Shown here piece by piece: positions 2,343 through 59,918 of a stretch of DNA of 64,000 nt. Each line of letters starts with the position of its first letter. The stretch's first letter is position 1. The notes under the pieces are model-generated. The model saw only the letters and a list, made by a program, of their open reading frames with translations, did no database searches and was not told the DNA's origin. The stretch is from Spirochaetota bacterium. GTDB lineage: Bacteria; Spirochaetota; UBA4802; JAFGJZ01. A program made the translations under genes and the position numbers. The DNA is taken from assembly GCA_035395685.1 (NCBI GenBank), contig DAOPBR010000002.1, positions 84,488 through 148,487 of the forward strand, given 5' to 3'.

Positions 2343-2344
2343 TG

Positions 2345-2700
2345 GGATCAGTGATTGCATGGTGTTATGCAATCACTGGAAGGTGCTACAAGGCGAAGTC
2401 TTATAGAGTACGCTAAACTCGCAGGCAGTCGGAACGATCCCGACAACCGAGACGCTACAAATCCGGCAGGAAGCCGGTTTAAAAGCGTCTCGACAGGAGC
2501 GGCTTCCATGCGGATTTATTTTTGGAATCATTACGTTATAAGTTTTTCTCAGCGAACATCCTATTCGCTTCGATTATAACTTGAAATTAACTTAACACCT
2601 CAAACTCCAAGGTAATGCTTGCGTTTTCCCGCTGTGGTCTTCAACCACCTCGCGGGCTATCTTTCCGCATCCATGCGGAAAGTAAAATCAGCATCGCGGT
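2345..2700. repeat. Solo copy of the hairpin-rich mosaic repeat family (same family as 56.1-59.3 kb)
   Basis: The element begins right after the stop codon of the GGDEF gene. It contains these modules: a perfect hairpin gtgattgcat-ggtgtt-atgcaatcac (2351-2376); 'ctcgcaggcagtcggaacgatcccgacaaccgagacgct'; 'aaaagcgtctcgacag'; and a segment of about 130 nt homologous to the 58343/58803/59176 unit. That unit includes stems agcgaa/ttcgct, cccgctgtgg/ccacctcgcggg (2628-2656) and tttccgca-tcca-tgcggaaa (2662-2681). Confidence 0.7.
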
Positions 2701-3837
2701 AATGATTAATGATATTCCGCTTATTATAAACGAATGCTGATATCCGAGTGAATGACCTATTTTCGGATAGATCATCATTCCGAAGAGGCTTCCTGCAACC
2801 TGAGATATTCCCCATATCCCCATGTTTCCGCCGAGCTTCTTCTTATCAAAAAGCGAACCGAGTCCGTGAAGTGTTACAAGCAAAACCATTCCGTCGCTCG
2901 CGCCGTGAATCATTCTCATCGCTAATGAAAAATAATAGTTCGGATTTACTTTCAGTATCATCGTTAATCCTGAAAAAAATACGCCGATCATAAATAATGT
3001 CAGAAGCGACATCTTGCCCTTCTCTATTATTCCGGCAAAGAAAAATGCAGCTGCCGGAAACGCTAAAAACTCGCACATCATGTATACTGTTGTATCCACC
3101 ATTCCGGCGTGTAAATAATGCTTAAGAAACAACGCGTAGCATGTTTCTTCGGCTCCCCAGTGCGATGAAAAGAGAAATAGAATTATACAGAAAACAATTA
3201 TACCCTTGCCTGTTTTCGTCTTTCCGTATTCGCGCAGAGGAACTTTTGCCGTATGTGTTTTTTTAAGCTTGAACGCTATCAAAGATGAAACTGCGAAAAT
3301 CACGCATGCTGCAATCGTCATCAGCTTAAAATTGGAATTTTCGCCGTAAATAATCTGAAAAAGAAAAACCGAGGCCAATCCGATAAATCCGGCCGCTGCA
3401 GTCACAAACAAATATTTTACAAGATGCTTTTCAGAATGTTCACCGAGAAGACGCTTTATGAAAAGTGAATCGAAGCTTGACTGAAATAGACTTTTTCCGC
3501 AAGCGAAAAGCGCGAATACGGGAATAAGCACCGCAAAGCTTGAGCCGAAACTGAGCGCCGCGGCAAAACCCGACAGAAGAAGAAACGCAAATAGAATGAG
3601 TTTTCTTGATTCTACCCTGTCATTAATAATCCCTGAAGGAAAAGCGAGAAGAAAGCTTACAAGCGGAACCTCCGCCATCAATATCCCCGTATAGATTCCT
3701 GTAATACCTTTCTGCTCAAGAAATAGAGGAATAAACCATGAAAGCGGAAACACAACCGCCTTAAATATAAAAAAGGCCGAATACTCGGCAAAATTTTTCT
3801 TCATAATTGCACCGCCGCGTGCAATTATGAACCGCAT
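2641..3837 (-). CDS. MFS-type transporter (about 12 TM helices)
   Basis: Strongly hydrophobic 398-aa ORF with repeated TM-helix pattern. The likely start is the internal Met (MKKNFAEY, about 3804). The last 9 codons (MRKDSPRGG) plus the stop are encoded inside the mosaic repeat at 2641-2682. Confidence 0.7.
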   Translation of the reverse strand: MRFIIARGGAIMKKNFAEYSAFFIFKAVVFPLSWFIPLFLEQKGITGIYTGILMAEVPLVSFLLAFPSGIINDRVESRKLILFAFLLLSGFAAALSFGSSFAVLIPVFALFACGKSLFQSSFDSLFIKRLLGEHSEKHLVKYLFVTAAAGFIGLASVFLFQIIYGENSNFKLMTIAACVIFAVSSLIAFKLKKTHTAKVPLREYGKTKTGKGIIVFCIILFLFSSHWGAEETCYALFLKHYLHAGMVDTTVYMMCEFLAFPAAAFFFAGIIEKGKMSLLTLFMIGVFFSGLTMILKVNPNYYFSLAMRMIHGASDGMVLLVTLHGLGSLFDKKKLGGNMGIWGISQVAGSLFGMMIYPKIGHSLGYQHSFIISGISLIITAMLILLSAWMRKDSPRGG

Positions 3838-19666: not shown

Positions 19667-20515
19667 TTATCTTAAAAGCTGGAGGACAGTCTGCGCTTTC
19701 TGATTAGCCTGAGCAAGCATTGAAGTGCCGCTCTGAACAAGAATCTGATCTTTAGTAAGATCAACCATTGTTTCAGCCATATCAGCGTCACGAATACGGG
19801 ATTCAGAAGCCTGAATGTTTTCATAAGCATTCATGAGACCTTTAGAAGCAAATTCGAGTCTGTTGTAATATGCTCCAAGATCCGCTCTCTGTTTTGCAAT
19901 CTTCTGAAGTGCTTCGTCGACAACACCGATTGTTCTGTTAGCTTTGTCAGCAGTCGAAAGATTTGCCAAGAATTCACCGGTTTTTTCTTTGAGGCTAAGA
20001 CCCTCAGCAGTCATAGTTCCGATGTAAACTCTTTCTCTCTGATGCATATTAGCTCCGATGTGGAACCACATAGAAGCCTTAGGATTAGTTCTGGAATAAT
20101 CACCAAGAAGAAGTTTAAATTTGTTAAACTCTGCCTGAGACGCAATTCTGTCAACTTCATCGATCAAAGCCGAAACTTCAACCTGGATGAGCTGGCGGTC
20201 TTCATTAGTATAAATACCGTTTGAAGACTGAACTGCAAGAACGCGTATTCTCTGAAGAATCTGAGAAGTCTGGTCAAGGTAACCTTCTGTAGTCTGAACA
20301 AAGCTCATGCCGTCTTCAGCATTTCTTTCAGCCTGACGAAGACCCTGAATCTGAGTTCTCATTTTTTCTGATACTGCAAGTCCGGAAGCATCGTCCCCTG
20401 ATTTGTTAATTCTCATACCGGAAGAAAGCTTCTCAGTAGATCTGTTAACGTCCCAGTGTTTGAACTTCAAAACACGGTTTGCATTAATCGCGCTCATGTT
20501 ATGGTTAATAATCAT
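19667..20515 (-). CDS. flaB: Flagellin FlaB (periplasmic flagellar filament core protein), copy 1
   Basis: [87 protein letters not shown]. Canonical spirochaete FlaB. An AGGAG RBS lies 8 nt upstream. Confidence 0.95.
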
Positions 20516-48178: not shown

Positions 48179-48278
48179 AAGTTTCTCCTTTTGATTGAAA
48201 AAACTTATAACTGCAGCAGTAAAATGTATTGGATTATATTGCAGAAACAAAAAAAGAACCGCTTACGCGATCCTTTTG

Positions 48279-48362
48279 TGCCCAGGACGAGATTCGAACT
48301 CGTACAGAAGAACTTCCGCTAGCCCCTCAAGCTAGTGTGTCTACCAATTCCACCACCTGGGC
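48279..48362 (-). tRNA. tRNA-Leu (anticodon GAG), type II with a long variable arm; CCA not encoded
   Basis: Reverse complement: GCCCAGG-TG-GTGG-AATTGGTAGA-CACA-CTAGC-TTGAGGG-GCTAG-(variable arm CGGAAGTTCTTCTGTACG)-AGTTCGAATCTCGT-CCTGGGC-A. Seven-bp acceptor stem, GAG anticodon in a 7-nt loop, TTCGAAT T-loop. Confidence 0.85.
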
Positions 48363-51822: not shown

Positions 51823-52671
51823 ATGATTATCAATCACAACGTCAGCGCGATTTTCGCACATCGCACACTCAAGTTTCACGACTGGAGTCTCACTTCTGAT
51901 ATCGAAAAACTTTCATCAGGCTTGAGAATCAATAAGGCCGGCGATGACGCGTCCGGACTTGCAGTATCTGAAAAAATGAGATCACAGATTCAGGGACTTC
52001 GTCAGGCTGAAAGAAACACAGAAGACGGCATGAGTCTTATACAGACTGCGGAAGGATATCTTGAGGAAACTCACGGAATCATTCAGCGTATACGTGTTCT
52101 TGCGGTGCAGGCGGCAAACGGTATTTATACACCTGAAGACCGTCAGCTGATTCAGGTTGAAGTATCCGAACTTATCGATGAAGTAGACCGTATTTCATCA
52201 CAGGCCGAGTTCAACAAGATGAAACTGTTGACAGGTTCGTTTGCAAGACTCAGACCAACCGCTTCAATGTGGTTCCATATGGGTCCGAACATGCACCAGA
52301 GAGAAAGAGTATTTATCGAGACAATGACTACAGCGGCACTAGGACTCAGAAACCCTACAACGCTTACATTTATATCGATCTCGACTCCGGGCAAAGCAAA
52401 CAGCGTAATAGGACTCGCGGACGAAGCTCTTAGAATTATATCAAAACAGAGAGCGGATCTTGGAGCATATTACAACAGACTCGAACATGCAGCGAAAGGA
52501 TTGATGAACGCGTACGAAAATACACAGGCATCAGAATCCCGCATCAGAGACACAGACATGGCAGAGCAGATGTCTTCATTCACAAGATATCAGATACTCC
52601 AGCAGGCTGCGACATCGATGCTCGCACAGGCGAATCAGAAGAGCCAGGGAGTGCTCAGACTGTTACAGTAA
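51823..52671 (+). CDS. flaB: Flagellin FlaB (periplasmic flagellar filament core protein), copy 2
   Basis: [87 protein letters not shown]. About 70% identical to copy 1. A GGAGG RBS lies upstream. Confidence 0.95.
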
Positions 52672-52713: not shown

Positions 52714-52760
52714 CCAAAAAAGCCGGACATCCCATCCGGCTTTTTTATGTTGAGAGGGGG
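52714..52760 (+). terminator. flaB-2 rho-independent terminator (agccgga-catccca-tccggct plus T-run), which is also the left copy of an about 47-bp direct repeat flanking the R-M cassette
   Basis: Perfect 7-bp stem followed by TTTTTT. The same ggacatccc.tc.ggct.tttta..tt.gag.aggg string recurs at 55117-55166. Confidence 0.65.
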
Positions 52761-52801
52761 ATGAAAATGGGAGACAAATAGAACATTTAGAATTTAAGCA
52801 A

Positions 52802-53875
52802 TCAAGCCATTACGCTTATCTTCTCTTCATCTAAAAACTCTTCCGTTGATAAAGTATGCGATAAAGTAATCTTTTTATTCTTAAACAACTTAGAAATATC
52901 TTTTTCAATTTTTTTTGCTAAATGATATGCCAAATTAACCGGAACAGCATTCCCAATCATTTTATATCCTGCTGTCAAATTATTGTATTTGAACACAAAG
53001 CTGTCTGGAAAAGTTTGTATCCGAGCACATTCACGAATACTTAATCTTCTGTATAAATGCTCTTGTCCTGGAGAAAATATTCTTTTATTCTGTTCAACAA
53101 AAACCATTTTGGGAGCTTGCGGATGTAAAGGAGCATGCCTTCCACCAGCTTGGATGGTAAACGAAACTTCATCCCAAGATCTCACTCTATTGCGAGACAT
53201 GAAAATCGTAGAGAAACCTCCAGTCATATATTCATGATTAGGAATAACGCATTTATTTCCATTCGTTTTTTGGAGAGAAAGCGCCGGTAAAGCATTATCC
53301 TTTAAATCATAAATGACATCTTTAAGAAGAACTTTATCGTGTTCAGTAATTGGTTCTGGAAAATTAAATTCTATTCCCAGATCAGAGCGATAACCAATAA
53401 AGAAAACTCGTTTTCTATCCTGTGGTACTCCATAATCTGATGCATTCAGAAGAGCGAATGATAAATTATAACCGCTTTCAACAAACATTTCTTTAATATT
53501 TTGCAATGCCTTACCATGTGTTGGCAACAACATTCCAGATACATTTTCAGCTAAAAAAAACAATGGTTTTTTATCACGCAAAATTCTGATAAAATCAAAA
53601 AACAATTGTCCTCTTTTATCATTAATTCCTCGAAGAGCGCCTGCTTCACTCCAACTTTGACAAGGTGGACCTCCAATAATACCGATGCATTCAGGAATTT
53701 CATTAGATGAAATTTCCGTTATACTTCTTTTATCTAAAATTGTTTTTTTATGATTAGCTTCAAATGTTTCCCATATTTCTTTGTCATATTCATTAGCCCA
53801 GACAATATTAAATCCAGCTTTTTGGAAACCTAAATCAAGTCCACCCGCTCCTGAAAAAAAAGAAACAATATTCAT
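52802..53875 (-). CDS. DNA (cytosine-5) methyltransferase, M.HaeIII-like (predicted GGCC specificity)
   Basis: Motif [12 protein letters not shown], motif [11 protein letters not shown], motif VI ENV, motif [16 protein letters not shown]-terminal variable region (..[41 protein letters not shown]..) resembles M.HaeIII/M.NgoPII as recalled. GGCC specificity is not verified. Confidence 0.9.
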
Positions 53876-53885
53876 TTATTTCTCC

Positions 53886-54872
53886 CTAAATTGTATTAAC
53901 CGATAAAGTATTCTTAAAAAGAGTATGAGGCGCACTTAGCAAATTGATGTCAAATTTTAATGATGGCTCAATTCTTGAACTGGCATTATGTATTCGAAAA
54001 GAAAGCTCCCAACCTTTATTAAATTTTACAATTATAGTTGTTAAAGAATTCTCTTTAAACTGAACATCTATAATCTGATCAGGTAGCCCGACAATGGGCG
54101 TAACAAATTTTGGAAACTTATCCTTAAAAGGCAAATTTAAAGTACCATGCAGATTAAAAGCTTGAATTTCAATATGATTCGTACTTCTTATAACTTTATA
54201 AAAATCTTTGTTACCAACTAAATATTCTATCATTCTTGAAGCTACTTGTTTTTTATTCATACTATATAATTTCAACAACTCATTTCGGAATGCTTCCAAA
54301 ATCGGCTTATATATTGATTCATGGTAATTGCCTAGCGTATCCCATTTCTGAGTGGATTTACTATCTATCTTAATTTTCTTTAACAAATCAAAAACCGGAG
54401 CTACATTTTCAAAATACTCTGATGAGCAATTAACACCAAGCCATTTATCGCCAAAATCTATATCATTAGATAAACGCGAATGCTTTACTGCGTGATGATT
54501 ATTTTTTGCAGATATGCCAATTTCCCATTTTTGCATTAGACGAATCGCAAGAACATCTCTTACATCACCTTCTTGCCCATGATTATCTGTCAATATTTCA
54601 AGTTGAAGCAAGTCCTTTTTATTTATACCATTTGAAAGACGAGGTTCAATATCAATCATAAAATTGACAGCAAAACTTGCACTTAATAAATAACGACTCT
54701 TTTCATTTTTATCGATACGGCTAAAACATTCTTCGGCAGTTATATACGCGGCGTTCTCAATAACTTGAACAGTAGTTTCTTTGGATAACTTCTCAAAAAA
54801 TTCTTTCAACAAAGCATATTCAAATGCTTTTCCACTTATCATTTGTTTTGAATTTTCAATCATGGATAACAC
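53886..54872 (-). CDS. Putative type II restriction endonuclease partnered with the m5C methyltransferase (HaeIII-type suspected)
   Basis: 328-aa ORF 10 bp upstream of the methyltransferase gene on the same strand. Size and context fit R.HaeIII-like enzymes. No motif was independently recognised. Confidence 0.5.
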   Translation of the reverse strand: MLSMIENSKQMISGKAFEYALLKEFFEKLSKETTVQVIENAAYITAEECFSRIDKNEKSRYLLSASFAVNFMIDIEPRLSNGINKKDLLQLEILTDNHGQEGDVRDVLAIRLMQKWEIGISAKNNHHAVKHSRLSNDIDFGDKWLGVNCSSEYFENVAPVFDLLKKIKIDSKSTQKWDTLGNYHESIYKPILEAFRNELLKLYSMNKKQVASRMIEYLVGNKDFYKVIRSTNHIEIQAFNLHGTLNLPFKDKFPKFVTPIVGLPDQIIDVQFKENSLTTIIVKFNKGWELSFRIHNASSRIEPSLKFDINLLSAPHTLFKNTLSVNTI

Positions 54873-55116
54873 CTATAATTTGTTGAGAGTCAAATCCTCT
54901 TAACTTATTACAAACCATCGCTATCATCGTCAATACTAAAACCATGAACAAAGAACATGTTCGTCATAGTAATTTATAAACAAGAAAATTCTCACCAGTA
55001 ACCTCTCAGCGCCAAATTACTCGAATACTTTACAAAGGATATAACGTATTTTAGAAATTAATTATCAATATAACTTTTTTTTTGCAATCCGTTGAAAGCG
55101 GTCTGAAAATCAAGGC

Positions 55117-55166
55117 GAAAAAGGTGGACATCCCGTCAGGCTGTTTTACATTATTGAGGAGAGGGA
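55117..55166 (+). repeat. Right, degenerate copy of the flaB-terminator-derived direct repeat (R-M cassette boundary)
   Basis: gaaaaaggtggacatcccgtcaggctgttttacattattgaggagaggg matches 52714-52760 at about 70% identity. The stem complementarity is lost in this copy. Confidence 0.5.
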
Positions 55167-55260
55167 AATTAGAACAGGGGTCAGTCCGAGATAGTTATTT
55201 CCTCAAAAAAAGAAAGCTTCTATATTGAATCATTTCGTATTATATAAGATGGATAACATT

Positions 55261-55773
55261 TTAATTATCCTTTTCTGGAATAATCGAAGCTAAATCATCT
55301 TCAACATCAATTCCATATAAAGTTGCAATTTGAGCAACCATGATACCAAAATTACCTCTTAATTCTCCTAACGCAGAAGCAAAAGTCCAACTTGCCCAAT
55401 GACCCCAACTCCTTGCATTATCCATGAATCTATTATCTTCAATATTCATTTTATCAAGAAATTTCCTACAGGATATACGCATAGCTTTAACTGGATCATA
55501 CAGTTTTGATTTATTAGACAAACTTTGCAATTCCGTAGTTAAAAATTTACGAATTTCAATAATGGATTGAACACAGTGGTTGGGCACTTCCATTTCGCTC
55601 GGACTATATAAAACCCTGCGATCTTCGAGAAAACGAATAATCCGTTTTGCAATATTACATTCTGCCTCTGATGGATTCCAAGAAATTCCAAATACAGAAC
55701 AATTAATTCCGGTTATTCTTTCTCTGATTTCTGAAAATTTCATAATCATTCCTAAATCAAAATTTCTATCCAT
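55261..55773 (-). CDS. Hypothetical protein, orphan 170-aa ORF in the accessory island
   Basis: Clean ORF with its own 330-bp AT-rich upstream region. No recognisable motif (it lacks the Vsr, HTH and PIN signatures that were checked). Confidence 0.5.
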   Translation of the reverse strand: MDRNFDLGMIMKFSEIRERITGINCSVFGISWNPSEAECNIAKRIIRFLEDRRVLYSPSEMEVPNHCVQSIIEIRKFLTTELQSLSNKSKLYDPVKAMRISCRKFLDKMNIEDNRFMDNARSWGHWASWTFASALGELRGNFGIMVAQIATLYGIDVEDDLASIIPEKDN

Positions 55774-56099
55774 TTATCCTAAACATAGATGATACTTCTG
55801 TCACATACTCCACCAAAAATCTAATAATACACGAAGCTAAACCTATAAAATGTTTCAATCTCGCTTCTTTTGTTTTTTCATTTTAAAGTTGCGAACTGTT
55901 CAGCTTTAACCGATGAACACCCTAAGATCTTCCACTCAATGATTATTATGATCTTTATGCATAATGTTTTCATGAATGTCAAATCCAAAATAATCCAACT
56001 GTCACAGAAAAAATTACGCGTATGCTGAGCGCAGCGAATAAACGCGTAATGATATTATAAAATGAATGATTTCTAAAATCAAGAAAGTGCGCTAAGCAC

Positions 56100-56337
56100 T
56101 TCAAATAAAGACGGATGATAGCAATAACACCAAAACCGTCCGACGCAGTCGGACACCAAATAAGCGCAGATTATCGCAGTCATTTCGAAGAAATGCGCGA
56201 TAGTTCTGTCGCGACAAGCCCCGCGCAGCGGTGCCCTTTTCTTTCGCCGAATTTCTTTTGGGCACGCAAAAGAAATCGGCAAACGGATTTAAAAGGTGCG
56301 AAGCACCTTTTGTGTCTCGCATGACACCATGCGAAAC
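56100..56337. repeat. GC-rich, hairpin-dense mosaic element abutting the mazF stop codon
   Basis: Hairpins aaaaggtgc-gaa-gcacctttt (56291-56311), tcgcatg-acacc-catgcga (56317-56334, 3 nt from the mazF stop), gccgaatttctttt...aaaagaaatcggc, and gtccgac-gca-gtcggac (56137-56153). These modules are shared with the element at 57105-57488. Confidence 0.7.
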
Positions 56338-56661
56338 TTATTCTACCAACATTTCTTTAATAACTGCTTTGATCTTCGTGATCGTTTTCTTGTCAAGTTT
56401 ACCTAATTTTTTAATTATTCTTACTTTGTCTATCGTTCTAATCTGATCTATAACTATCCATCCATCCTTCAAATTAAAATTTGTCTTAACACGGGATGGA
56501 TAGTCATGTCCTTTTGTTGTCATTGGCGCAATGATTATTGTTGAAATATTATGATTCATTTCATTCGGCGAAATTACGGTACATGGCCGGCTTTTTTTAA
56601 TTTCATGACCGACTGTTGGGTCAAGATTTACCAACACAACATCATATTGATCTATTACCAT
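56338..56661 (-). CDS. mazF: MazF/PemK-family endoribonuclease toxin
   Basis: ..YDVVLVNLDPTVGHEIKKSRPCTVISPNEMN..STIIIAPMTT.. typical PemK/MazF fold. 7-bp overlap with the upstream antitoxin gene. Confidence 0.85.
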   Translation of the reverse strand: MVIDQYDVVLVNLDPTVGHEIKKSRPCTVISPNEMNHNISTIIIAPMTTKGHDYPSRVKTNFNLKDGWIVIDQIRTIDKVRIIKKLGKLDKKTITKIKAVIKEMLVE

Positions 56662-56924
56662 TCGAAATCTTCCTGCTCAATATCCAATGAATCATCAATA
56701 AGCAAAGAGTCGTGTTTATTTTCAGACATTTCTTTGAACTTTTTCGACCATTCTCTTCTGGGTGTTTCTTTTACAGGAATAATAATGATTTTCTGATTTT
56801 CAATCTTCATTTCAACTTCTGTTCCGATATGACATTGTGATAGAACTGAAGAAGGTATTCGTATCCCCTTTGAGTTTCCTATTTGTACAATATTGACTTT
56901 CATAATGAATAACCTATCGATCAT
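56655..56924 (-). CDS. mazE: MazE/AbrB-type (SpoVT/AbrB fold) antitoxin
   Basis: MKVNIVQIGNSKGIRIPSSVL.. swapped-hairpin AbrB N-terminus with an acidic C-tail. Confidence 0.8.
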   Translation of the reverse strand: MIDRLFIMKVNIVQIGNSKGIRIPSSVLSQCHIGTEVEMKIENQKIIIIPVKETPRREWSKKFKEMSENKHDSLLIDDSLDIEQEDFEW

Positions 56925-57104
56925 TTAACGTAATCACAATATAGTTACATGTCAACTGTTTAATTTCTTCAAATCAACTCTTCCCCTAACCTCATTCCGC
57001 CGCATTCGAACAAACCAAAATCAATGCAAGATTAAATCGCCATAAAATATACCGCTTCATAACGATTGAAATCTGCATGCTTAGTGATTACAGAAATTTC
57101 AAAT

Positions 57105-57488
57105 CTAAAAACAAACCGCCTGGCGTGGGGAAAAGATGAATGAAAACAAAATCATTAAAACGTCCGACGCAGTCGGACACTAAGGCGGTAGGAGAACCGC
57201 CACCGAGGCGCTTCACAAGCAAACAGGAAGTTTGCACAAAGCGCCTCGCAACGGGCGACCGCAGCATCCGGCAAAGCCGGTGCGAGGAATTCGCCCGACA
57301 AAAGCCAGGAGTGGGATCTCAAAGGGATGAGGAGCGGCGACTGAGCTCCTCGTCCCTTTGAATATTCTCGCATGATCCATGCGAAACCGGATTACAAAGG
57401 CGAAGCCTTTGACAACAAGTCCGGTGACCGGACAAATCGGATTTAAAAGGTGCTCTGCACCTTTTATGTATCACATGACACCATGTAA
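57105..57488. repeat. GC-rich, hairpin-dense mosaic element abutting the vapC stop codon
   Basis: aaaaggtgc-tct-gcacctttt (57445-57465); tcgcatg-atc-catgcga; caaaggc-gaa-gcctttg; gtccgg-tga-ccggac; a long stem aagggatgaggagc...gctcctcgtccctt; gaggcgctt...aagcgcctc (57205-57247) enclosing gcaaac..gtttgc; gtccgac-gca-gtcggac (57162-57178); and the aaaacaaaccgccWggYgtgg module (57107-57134). Confidence 0.7.
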
Positions 57489-57887
57489 TTAAACCCAGTT
57501 CTCCATTCTCAATTTCTTAACCTTTGAAAATTCCTTCAAATTATTAGAAACCAAAATTAAATCTAACGATATTGCCTGTGCCGCTAATAAATAATCCATC
57601 GCTCCGATCGGTTGACCGGATTTTTCCAAGTCCGATCTGATAATCCCATATTCTTTTGCCGCTTTAAAATCATAATCAATCAATTTAAACGGCAACAGGA
57701 ATTCAATTAATGCAATTCGGCTGTTATCAGGATTTTTACTTTTATTGATGCCGTATTCGAGTTCCGAAACCGTAATTGAAGATATGGCAATATCGTCTAT
57801 TTCATAATTCGACAACCGCTGTATAACAGAAACGGGTCTTTTATTGATAATATAAATACATATGTTTGTATCAAGAAGATACTTCAT
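57489..57887 (-). CDS. vapC: VapC PIN-domain ribonuclease toxin
   Basis: MKYLLDTNICIY.. with the conserved PIN acidic residues (D6, E42-like SSITVSELEYG, D-containing C-terminal region). Confidence 0.85.
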   Translation of the reverse strand: MKYLLDTNICIYIINKRPVSVIQRLSNYEIDDIAISSITVSELEYGINKSKNPDNSRIALIEFLLPFKLIDYDFKAAKEYGIIRSDLEKSGQPIGAMDYLLAAQAISLDLILVSNNLKEFSKVKKLRMENWV

Positions 57888-58129
57888 TCGATAATTTCTC
57901 TCGCTTCAATGGCCGGCTGAATCCGTTCAGACATAAAATTTTCAGGAAACTTCTCCAGACTTTTTGAAAAATTATCCCAAACTTTATCTTTCGGTATAAG
58001 AATAACCATATCATCAATCCGTTTAACAAATACAGATTCGGTTAAAAATCTATATTCCTTTGGCAATCTTACGGCCTGACTCCTTCCGGTTGTAAATATT
58101 TTTGCTGCGTCCATATAATTATCCCCCAT
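57884..58129 (-). CDS. vapB: VapB (VagC/AbrB-type) antitoxin
   Basis: ..TTGRSQAVRLPKEYRF.. SpoVT/AbrB motif. 4-bp overlap with vapC. Confidence 0.8.
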   Translation of the reverse strand: MGDNYMDAAKIFTTGRSQAVRLPKEYRFLTESVFVKRIDDMVILIPKDKVWDNFSKSLEKFPENFMSERIQPAIEAREIIE

Positions 58130-58283
58130 TCATCTGATAGATATCATGATACATATCTTTTGACAAAGTATCAAGTCTTTTTTTAACATTGAATTAAGTG
58201 ATGAGAATGGATTGTTGAAATGTTAGGCGGTAATTGCAGAAAAACAATTCGTCATCATCAGATGATTTATTGAATGCCGAATC

Positions 58284-59320
58284 AAAAACAAACCGCCAGG
58301 TGTGGAAAAAAAATACGTGCGCCCTCACCTCGGCTCCTGTAAAATTTACTCACAAATTCAGTGTCCCATTGCTTTATCTCCGCGAACTTCCTGTTCGCTC
58401 CGAATGCAACTTTAAATCAATTTAACACCTATATCTCCGAGGTAACGCTTGCGTTCTCCTGCTGCGGACTTCGTCCGCCTCGCAGGCAGTCGGAACGATC
58501 CCGACAATCGAGACGCTTCCCTCGCAAACTGCTCGACTCTTTTTGTGCCGTCCTGGCACAGAGTCTCGTTGCCATCATCGTGATGGCTCAAAGTTTGCAC
58601 AAAAGCGTCTCGACAGTTTCCGCCTCCGTGCGTTAGAGCATTTATGCTTGAATACAATTGTTGCTTTTTCTCAACGGTCATCCTTGACCGTTTCGATTAT
58701 ATCAATAATGCCAATTATCACCTCAAACTATGCGGTAACGCTTGCGGTCTCCCGCTATGGACTTCGTCCATAGCGGGCAATGTTTCCGCCTCCGTGCGGA
58801 TTTACTCACAAATTCAGTATACCATTGCTTTATCTCCGCGAACTTCCTGTTCGCTCCGGATACAACATCAAATTGATTTATCACCTCAAACTATGCGGTA
58901 ACGCTTGCGTTCTCCTGCTGCGGACTTCGTCCATCTCGCAGGCAGTCGGAACGATCCCGACAATCGAGACGCTTCCCTCGCAAACAGGAGGTTTGCACAA
59001 AAGCGTCTCGACAGTTTCTACTCCTCGGCGCGTTTGCCGTCCTGGCCGCGCCTCATTGCCGGAAGGAATCCGGCAACAAATCGCAACTTGTCGTCACGGA
59101 GGACGACACAAAGCGATTTGCAATGCACATCCTGTGCAAGCGCCTGCGGATTTGCTAATGACTTCAATCAAATGATTCGTTATCTCCGCGAACTTCCTGT
59201 TCGCTCCGAATGTAACTTTAAATCAATTTAACACCTATATCTCCGAGGTAACGCTTGCGTTCTCCTGCTGCGGACTCCGTCCGCCTCGCAGGCAATGTTT
59301 CCGCCTCCGTGCGGAAACTG
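58284..59320. repeat. ORF-less tandem array of the mosaic hairpin repeat family: about 2.3 copies of a 460-bp composite unit plus partial modules
   Basis: A unit of about 145 nt starts at 58343, 58803 and (5'-truncated) 59176. Each copy is followed by modules agtcggaacgatcccgacaatcgagacgcttccctcgcaaac (58487, 58947), gtttgcacaaaagcgtctcgacagtttc (58589, 58994) and gtttccgc-ctccgt-gcggaaac (58781, 59297-59318). A unique 60-nt insert occupies 58529-58588. A leader module aaaacaaaccgccaggtgtgg lies at 58284-58310. The ORFs the caller reports inside the array are artefacts of GC-rich repeats. Confidence 0.75.
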
Positions 59321-59387: not shown

Positions 59388-59918
59388 ATGCCCCAAATAG
59401 GAATAATTCTCGGCAGCGATTCCGATCTCCCTAAAATCAGACAGTGCCCTGAAATTCTCGATAAATTCGGTGTCAGTTTTGAGATCATCTTCTCATCTGC
59501 TCACCGCACACCAGAACAGACCAAAGAATGGGTTGAAAGCGCGCGTTCACGCGGCATCAAAGTAATCATCGCCGCTGCAGGCGGCGCGGCGCATCTTCCT
59601 GGTGTTTGCGCGGCTCACACCACCCTTCCGATTGTCGGAATTCCGATTGAATCTCCGGTATCGGGCGGTCTCGATTCCATTCTCTCAATAATTCAGATGC
59701 CGTCCGGAATTCCGGTAGCTGCGATGCCGGCAGGTAAAGCGGGTGGAGCAAACTCGGCGCTTTTCGCTTTATCAATTCTTTCGGTTTCCGACTCTTCGAT
59801 TGCCGAAAAACTCGCGGCATACCGCGAAGAAATGAAAACTGAAATCAAAAAGAAAAATGATCTTTTAAATGAAAAAGGCTACAAAGAATATATTGATTCA
59901 CTCGGAGTTAAAAAATGA
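59388..59918 (+). CDS. purE: N5-carboxyaminoimidazole ribonucleotide mutase
   Basis: [34 protein letters not shown].. canonical PurE. The start is reassigned to ATG 59388, preceded by GGAGGA. Confidence 0.9.

Follow-up and report, generated by a model that had tools for sequence, protein, structure and literature searches.

An exchangeable island between flaB and purE of an uncultured spirochaete and the dispersed modular palindromic repeats within it

The neisserial intergenic mosaic elements (NIMEs) lie around the silent pilS cassettes, where they are believed to favour recombination. NIMEs and the pneumococcal BOX elements are generally known as modular arrays with a variable order and number of units that occupy plastic loci (see also PMC3184786). 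Repetitive extragenic palindromic (REP) sequences and bacterial interspersed mosaic elements (BIMEs) are known from Enterobacteriaceae and Pseudomonas, including the REPIN/RAYT systems (RAYT, REP-associated tyrosine transposase); their hallmarks are dispersed GC-rich palindromes, mosaic clusters, compensated stems, insertion of IS110- and IS3-family insertion sequences (IS) into the hairpins, and strain-specific segments (PMC1525189, PMC11208160, PMC3184786). Integron cassette arrays, among them the chromosomal integrons of Treponema (PMC3607928), and attC-site clusters without an integron integrase (CALINs), defined by at least two attC sites within 4 kb (PMC4889954), consist of co-oriented small units, often toxin-antitoxin (TA) genes, with a structured element at the stop codon. 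Restriction-modification (R-M) complexes can also insert with a long target duplication (PMC2853133). Here we compare these systems with the interval between flaB and purE in a 64,000-nucleotide stretch (the window) of contig DAOPBR010000002.1 from a Spirochaetota bacterium.

The interval spans about 6.6 kb between two plus-strand core genes and carries seven coding genes, all on the minus strand, which form four units: a HaeIII-type R-M pair, a DUF6650 gene, mazEF and vapBC. The evidence below supports its assignment as an accessory, exchangeable island between core genes. We consider it probable that this is a lineage-specific accessory island in a flaB-purE recombination hotspot, combined with genome-wide modular palindromic repeats of a REP/BIME- or NIME-like kind. 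The repeats are dispersed, their stems are held by compensatory change, their composition turns over fast, and one of their loops is the site of an IS110 insertion. Contigs matching the window come from an uncultured Spirochaetota population of anaerobic digesters and activated sludge (e.g. JGI 3300025677 Ga0209719_1000301), and matching NCBI metagenome-assembled genomes (MAGs) are GCA_035377685.1 and GCA_035367765.1, both labelled 'Spirochaetota bacterium'. The genes and repeat elements are as follows.

51823 to 52671, plus strand: flaB, flagellin, left core flank (Pfam Flagellin_N, Flagellin_C)
52802 to 53875, minus strand: type II C5 cytosine DNA methyltransferase (Pfam DNA_methylase 1e-99; PADLOC MTase_II 4e-116)
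53886 to 54872, minus strand: HaeIII-family type II restriction endonuclease (Pfam RE_HaeIII 4e-98; PADLOC REase_II 6e-101)
55261 to 55773, minus strand: DUF6650 protein (Pfam DUF6650 3e-22)
55961 to 56337, minus strand: spacer element C (repeat modules; fold z-score -6.9 over 56084-56340)
56338 to 56661, minus strand: MazF/PemK toxin (Pfam PemK_toxin 1e-29; NCBIfam)
56655 to 56924, minus strand: MazE (AbrB-type) antitoxin (Pfam MazE_antitoxin)
57100 to 57488, minus strand: spacer element D, about 10 hairpins (repeat modules; fold z-score -8.3 over 57095-57491)
57489 to 57887, minus strand: VapC PIN-domain toxin of the Leptospira type, tRNA-fMet endonuclease family (Pfam PIN; NCBIfam VapCLeptosp 3e-54)
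57884 to 58129, minus strand: VapB antitoxin (NCBIfam VapBLeptosp 1e-28)
58284 to 58314, no strand assigned: AAAACAAACCGCC module, copy 2, upstream of the vapB promoter (repeat search)
58330 to 59320, plus strand: repeat cluster with no credible gene (repeat search; fold z-score -12.3)
59388 to 59918, plus strand: purE, right core flank, with guaA next (Pfam AIRC 3e-54)

Exact look-up of the FlaB protein gave contigs with at least four contents of the flaB-purE interval, here termed types A to D. Type A is the arrangement in the window. Type B has open reading frames (ORFs) of 195, 241 and 317 aa and a TA pair of a PIN-domain and a ribbon-helix-helix (RHH) protein, to which one contig adds an IS110 element; type C has different small ORFs together with the PIN-RHH pair of type B, and type D has an IS3 element directly after flaB. 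Types B to D represent a sister species whose flanks are 87-93% identical in nucleotide sequence to those in the window. Homology of the window to the sister species is lost at 52745, just past the flaB terminator, and picks up again at 59287, within the final repeat module. Types B and C are distinguished by a segment whose right breakpoint falls inside a repeat block. Close strains of type A vary in the repeats: a different stretch of about 140 nt takes the place of 56103-56316, there is an insertion of about 130 nt at 57320/57342, additional modules are found upstream of vapB, and the array is contracted in strain L038, which is without about one cluster unit. Exact look-ups of the MazF, VapC and methylase proteins always returned this arrangement, and no second locus for any of them was found. 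The type D contigs (L008:11057-12330 and L009) end inside or just past their IS3-family element.

The repeats of the island are composite. Spacer element C starts at the MazF stop codon with hairpin TCGCATGGTGTCATGCGA; next comes the hairpin AAAAGGTGC-TTC-GCACCTTTT, a putative terminator, then a unique hairpin section, a GTCCGAC-TGC-GTCGGAC hairpin (56138-56154) and finally an AT-richer module with a promoter-like site. Element D reads from the VapC stop codon as hairpin ACATGGTGTCATGT, the putative terminator AAAAGGTGC-AGA-GCACCTTTT, three short hairpins, a 112-nt module that we call m112 (57252-57363), a compound hairpin, a GTCCGAC hairpin (57162-57178) and the AAAACAAACCGCC module (57102-57137). 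Both elements set in 0-3 nt past the stop codon and open with a CATGGTGTCATG-type hairpin, then AAAAGGTGC-NNN-GCACCTTTT, the second hairpin consisting of an A-tract, a 9-bp GC stem and a T-tract. The GTCCGAC-GCA-GTCGGAC hairpin (at 56138 and 57162) and the AAAACAAACCGCC module (at 57108 and 58285) each occur twice. Hairpin GTCCGACGCAGTCGGAC likewise occurs twice, with no occurrence expected by chance, and the unit core GGTAACGCTTGCGKTCTCC five times, against 0.01 expected. The spacers are strings of 240-390 nt with about 10 different hairpins. The cluster at 58330-59320 contains four copies of a unit core of about 125 nt (hairpins H_a, H_b and H_c) with alternative 3' extensions, and stops right ahead of the purE promoter.

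Several features recorded in the preliminary description can be judged against this map. The minus-strand orientation of all coding units between flaB and purE is borne out for the seven genes, as identified by Pfam, PADLOC and NCBIfam, and among the called genes of the 64 kb window Pfam identified no integrase, transposase, recombinase or phage gene, again in agreement with it. The suggested measurement of base composition gave GC contents of 0.29-0.35 for the island genes, 0.40-0.47 for the flanks and 0.47-0.51 for the repeat blocks, and the suggested PADLOC run returned the methyltransferase and endonuclease hits given above. A single layout for every unit fits only the two TA units: the gaps on either side of the R-M pair, towards DUF6650 and towards flaB, are free of GC-rich elements, and the GTCCGAC hairpin and the AAAACAAACCGCC module share only one spacer. 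The next element begins within 3 nt of a stop codon, as claimed, after MazF and VapC. What had been called a repeat array at 58.3-59.3 kb does consist of repeats without a credible gene, but it is an irregular mosaic (spacings of 293, 163, 350 and 456 nt) in which Tandem Repeats Finder (TRF) calls no tandem array.

The repeat family is not confined to the island. A separate copy is present near the start of the window:

2343 to 2690, plus strand: copy of the repeat family, about 350 nt, between convergent genes for a GGDEF protein and a major facilitator superfamily (MFS) transporter (repeat search; z-score -6.5)

This copy begins 1 nt past the GGDEF stop codon. In a scan of species-representative genomes the unit core was present on several contigs from two related Spirochaetes MAGs, and a scan of metagenome contigs yielded 50 loci. 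These amount to about 19 different genomic settings, in which the repeat blocks measure 130-1100 bp. Eleven of the 12 island modules defined for this tally recur in other contexts, the exception being AAAACAAACCGCC. Housekeeping genes beside the repeats include pgi (phosphoglucose isomerase), metK (SAM synthetase), an aminotransferase gene, deaD (DEAD-box helicase) and argF, and the same group takes in an aconitase-family gene with a helix-turn-helix (HTH)-cupin regulator and a response regulator with a SpoIIE domain. Among the accessory neighbours are PIN/HicB-like, HepT, MNT and BrnT genes, an RHS gene, hsdR (type I R subunit), a group II intron reverse transcriptase and SH3_3 proteins. Many dispersed intergenic copies, as opposed to a single locus, are a REP/BIME property, and the window copy, the two MAGs and the 19 or so contexts all display it. 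The idea that the repeats specifically bound accessory genes does not survive this scatter, since a REP/BIME-like distribution that takes in housekeeping genes is essentially what had been named in advance as speaking against it. We also considered whether the repeats are simply untranslated regions (UTRs) of a duplicated gene family. This was rejected because there is no cargo paralogy between repeat-bearing loci, the sole case being an N-terminally related ORF family in L014/L016.

Alignment of 42 distinct copies of the unit core (alignment A3) shows how the structures are maintained. Cells at paired positions are paired in 92% of cases and two hairpins covary strongly, with 102 double-change cells against 32 in shuffles and none of 500 shuffles reaching the observed value. 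Sliding the 3' partners by 1-3 columns makes the signal collapse, and RNAalifold independently gives the same helices. Whole stems are exchanged with the TTCCT-type loop kept, for example GCGAAC/GTTCGC, GCTGTC/GACAGC and ACGGAC/GTCCGT. Both the conservation of stems by compensatory substitutions and the mosaic clustering, with variable number and order of types, are present, as they are in REP/BIME sequences. The m112 module is sharply bounded, contains two hairpins and is 93-100% identical in seven contexts (including L014, L016, L082, L060, L056 and L006), a conservation that exceeds that of the core flanks; a GTCCGAC-type hairpin and TTTT usually come next, like an intrinsic terminator. Ten distinct copies have sharp identical edges, with no evident terminal inverted repeat or target-site duplication in the 30-nt flanks as judged without an empty-site comparison. 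This module could be an active element similar to a MITE (miniature inverted-repeat transposable element), or a multicopy small RNA (sRNA).

In the sister species an IS110-family element with an RNA-guided transposase (NCBIfam transpos_IS110) is placed precisely within the loop of a hairpin just upstream of purE (L003:15771-17155), and the empty site of this insertion, at L006:9929-9948, reads AACGGACTTCCT^TGTCCGTT. IS110 and IS3-family elements are known to insert into REP hairpins (PMC1525189, PMC11208160). The spirochaetal repeats share further characters with REP/BIME sequences: they are GC-rich imperfect palindromes, intergenic, single or mosaic and with compensated stems; they often lie directly past stop codons or between convergent genes; and they are tied to strain-specific genome segments (PMC1525189). 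They differ from REP/BIME in having more hairpin types per cluster (about 10 in 390 nt), longer units (the 125-nt core and the 112-nt module) and AT-rich linkers, in lacking any sequence similarity, and in their Spirochaetota host. With NIMEs and BOX they have in common the modular arrays, the variable order and number of units and the plastic locus; in contrast to these, there is no gene-conversion cassette evidence here, the cargo consists of complete, self-promoted TA and R-M units, and the sequences are unrelated. No RAYT/Y1 transposase was seen on the contig fragments of the genome that were read, no genome-wide search aimed at RAYT having been made.

The R-M pair has boundaries of a different kind, formed by a repeat of the flaB terminator:

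52717 to 52768, no strand assigned: bidirectional terminator hairpin of flaB and the methylase (AAAAAGCCGGACATCCCATCCGGCTTTTTT) plus about 20 nt, direct-repeat copy 1 (repeat family D6)
55100 to 55175, no strand assigned: decayed second flaB-terminator segment, direct-repeat copy 2 (D6, 71% over 52 nt)

The R-M segment 52769-55117 is bracketed by this imperfect direct repeat of 52-75 bp (52717-52768 versus 55118-55169), which is single-copy in the sister species. The low GC content and the direct repeat are suggestive of entry of the R-M pair by an insertion that duplicated a long stretch of its target. Described R-M complexes of this kind (PMC2853133) likewise comprise a low-GC type II pair and a direct repeat of more than 30 bp without a mobility gene; they differ from the present case in that the repeat copies here are only about 71% identical and the single-copy reference is a sister species.

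These observations can be combined in a tentative scheme. Four independently acquired, self-promoted selfish or defence modules would have gathered in a permissive hotspot. Behind each TA operon, the first two hairpins would serve as a terminator or 3'-end stabiliser and so insulate neighbouring units, while the repeats, as dispersed homology and IS targets, would drive local indels and segment replacement. Changes in the content of the whole interval may then occur by homologous replacement through flaB, purE and the repeat modules, with no part for site-specific recombination between integrase and attC. At least mazEF and DUF6650 may derive from, or have common ancestry with, the environmental pool of integron cassettes, their attC sites having gone.

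Several findings weigh against the scheme and the hotspot reading on which it is built. The proposed comparison of the flaB-purE interval in relatives did reveal content that varies in the sister species, but in its own species (about 18 assemblies) gene content is invariant apart from repeat indels, and the term 'hotspot' consequently depends on the sister species and on these indels. TA genes are over-represented beside repeat blocks, at about five of 19 contexts in a sample selected by the repeat itself, and three TA families (MazEF; VapBC, with an AbrB-type antitoxin; and PIN with an RHH antitoxin) share the module that abuts the stop codon, so a specific link between repeats and TA genes is possible. 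The terminator and insulator roles are read from sequence alone, and the AAAAGGTGC hairpins went unflagged in the consensus terminator scan, because the T-run of each falls within its stem. The divergence between the two direct-repeat copies around the R-M pair should be counted here as well.

Among the alternatives, the one that fares best, although we regard it as unlikely, is that the elements are genes for structured non-coding RNA (ncRNA), for instance a multicopy family of sRNAs, or else UTR structures with a cis-regulatory role. The stems kept by compensatory changes, the conserved loops and the GC hairpin with T-run behind m112, which resembles an intrinsic terminator, all count in its favour, and by hand inspection the unit is co-oriented with the adjacent gene in eight of 11 contexts. 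This bias is not significant, however, and the orientation of the repeats relative to adjacent genes varies, with no consistent promoter; the counts of G-U versus A-C mismatches favour neither strand. An Rfam scan of 52-60 kb at E<=1 gave no family, only two sub-threshold chance matches at the flaB terminator. The modules are moreover shuffled, duplicated and deleted between close strains, which selfish or neutral repeats would explain better.

A non-integron cassette system, in which the hairpin mosaics would be sites for a recombinase such as an RNA-guided IS110-type or Xer-like enzyme, appears improbable. It would account for three unrelated TA families that have the same module right after the toxin stop codon and related modules upstream, for further series of small accessory genes in one orientation that are interrupted by these blocks (L082, L042), for recognition of one hairpin loop by an IS110 recombinase, and for the near-identity of m112 across contexts, which suggests recent mobility. 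On the other hand, the exact MazF, VapC and methylase proteins never occur at another locus, the closest mazEF and DUF6650 relatives elsewhere lack these repeats, and the modules also stand beside core genes, with unfixed orientation and no recombinase in the window. An independent test is provided by an island on L102-L104, which was retrieved by the identity of a VapC homologue (80% aa) and not by the repeat: none of its three TA pairs is repeat-flanked, though the genome has repeats. A more specific version of this idea is slightly less probable still; here the mosaics would be recombination or insulation sites of an undescribed, integrase-independent cassette system in Spirochaetota that captures attC-less TA units from the integron cassette pool, possibly driven by an RNA-guided IS110-type recombinase with the conserved hairpin loops as its targets. 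If true, small self-promoted units would be captured at hairpin sites after loss of attC. The L102-L104 island itself, viewed over 7 kb either side of the VapC homologue, lies co-oriented beside argF and contains HEPN_RiboL-PSP and patatin genes, the three TA pairs and a GLUG/invasin-like protein, with repeat blocks at the argF border only.

The resemblance to integrons was examined through attC architecture, taken as an imperfect palindrome of 57-141 nt with R''/L'' and L'/R' boxes (AAC...GTT ends), extrahelical bases and location on one strand. A strict RYYYAAC...GTTRRRY search (50-160 nt, both strands) gave no site pair. This consensus was also too stringent for the attC-like sites of L092 (see below) and was superseded by a relaxed structural scan with positive controls, which recovered two attC-like sites each in L092 and L093 and two of about four sites identified by eye in L095. 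In the window the relaxed scan gave zero sites at unit boundaries and just two weak matches inside the repeat cluster. The controls are themselves informative, as they carry relatives of the island genes. The closest non-identical MazF (95% aa) is encoded on contigs L092 and L093, where mazEF lies between palindromes of 116 and 102 nt (1492-1607 and 2352-2453 in L092) whose ends pair with a bulge. The downstream R'' box of L092, AGATAAC, is the exact reverse complement of the upstream R' box, GTTATCT, and by this R'/R'' signature mazEF of L092/L093 is identified as an integron cassette. For DUF6650, the nearest homologue (86% aa; L095-L099) likewise belongs to a co-oriented array that carries attC-like sites (L095:390-551 and 3397-3490), and the attC-like sites of the L092 and L095 arrays have the central motif GCCTTCGGCACATT in common.

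Homology to these cassettes is narrowly limited. The mazEF genes with their promoter (56973-56339) are 89% identical in nucleotide sequence to the L092 cassette, and the DUF6650 stretch (55775-55244) is 87% identical to L095; in each case homology is confined to that segment. DUF6650 homology trails off no more than about 10 nt from the R' box and, on the other side, at the R'' box, leaving only faded vestiges in the window. From these limits it appears, on sequence comparison, that the same mazEF and DUF6650 genes are in circulation in two forms, as cassettes with attC and as modules without it. No complementary R'/R'' boxes surround mazEF, vapBC, DUF6650 or the R-M pair in the window, no spacer in it shows sequence similarity to the control attC sites, and no intI was found among the called genes of the 64 kb window. 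Given the negative attC scans and the lack of shared sequence with the controls, the island is neither an attC array nor a CALIN. Of the cassette-type accessory island envisaged originally, what stands is an exchangeable island with at least four contents, homology breaks at 52745 and 59287 and cassette-like cargo, whereas the attC/CALIN mechanism does not. Thus an integron-type cassette array (a CALIN, or a sedentary integron with a distant integrase) whose GC-rich elements are attC sites is very unlikely: the co-oriented units, the elements abutting the stop codons of two TA operons, the typical TA and R-M cargo, the attC-flanked relatives of two units and the fading of DUF6650 homology at the boxes are outweighed by the absence of attC architecture and of a called integrase, by multi-hairpin mosaics unlike the control sites, by the 150-330 nt of AT-rich promoter DNA that every unit has of its own, and by the same modules flanking housekeeping genes.

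As the GC-rich hairpins are genome-wide repeats and not attC sites, the probable lineage-specific accessory island is one of an ordinary kind in a new host. Islands of this type are already known and current understanding is not overturned; the repeat family is new and lineage-specific, an undescribed, strongly covarying, modular palindromic family whose host, a digester spirochaete, is abundant and uncultured. Co-oriented TA and R-M units with structured repeats do resemble an integron, yet appearance alone is not diagnostic, and an integron-like look can come from a genome's own REP/BIME-like repeats building up in a plastic locus. The IS110 insertion is a clean natural case of such an element in a repeat hairpin loop outside Proteobacteria, and the putative occurrence of the same TA and DUF6650 genes in both states, with attC as cassettes and without it as modules, bears on gene exchange between the cassette pool and genomic islands.

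The cargo assignments are drawn from domain families and gene arrangement. The endonuclease and methyltransferase genes are adjacent, 10 nt apart and of matching families, as in type II R-M systems, and a GGCC specificity may be inferred from the HaeIII family. MazE and MazF overlap by 7 nt and VapB and VapC by 4 nt, and both pairs are predicted type II TA modules; the best-scoring NCBIfam models for VapBC are those of the Leptospira-type tRNA-fMet VapBC, and a promoter-like site precedes vapB (58174-58146). The true start of the DUF6650 protein is probably at 55743, giving 160 aa. Its AlphaFold model (predicted local distance difference test score, pLDDT, 84) is an all-helical bundle with no fold match in the PDB (best Foldseek hit E=0.5), and PADLOC gave no match. 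Homologues of DUF6650 at 55-66% identity are spread across phyla: Bacteroidota, Acidobacteriota, Gammaproteobacteria and Patescibacteria.

Other repeat-bearing loci also deserve mention. JAKJGA010000007.1 and its relatives (L082/L016/L014) contain 11 kb of co-oriented ORFs without a Pfam match, with five repeat blocks and an IS3 element, and this run includes a family of about 300 aa with shared N-termini that abuts m112. A group II intron reverse transcriptase/maturase gene (L071:4827-6137) directly adjoins a repeat block; terminator-like hairpins are a frequent homing target of group II introns in bacteria. The tRNA scan found no tRNA adjoining the island as an integration site, the sole tRNA being a tRNA-Leu(GAG) gene at 48.3 kb (48278-48362, minus strand), 4 kb to the left of flaB. 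A second flagellin gene is found in the window, away from the island, at 19667-20515 on the minus strand.

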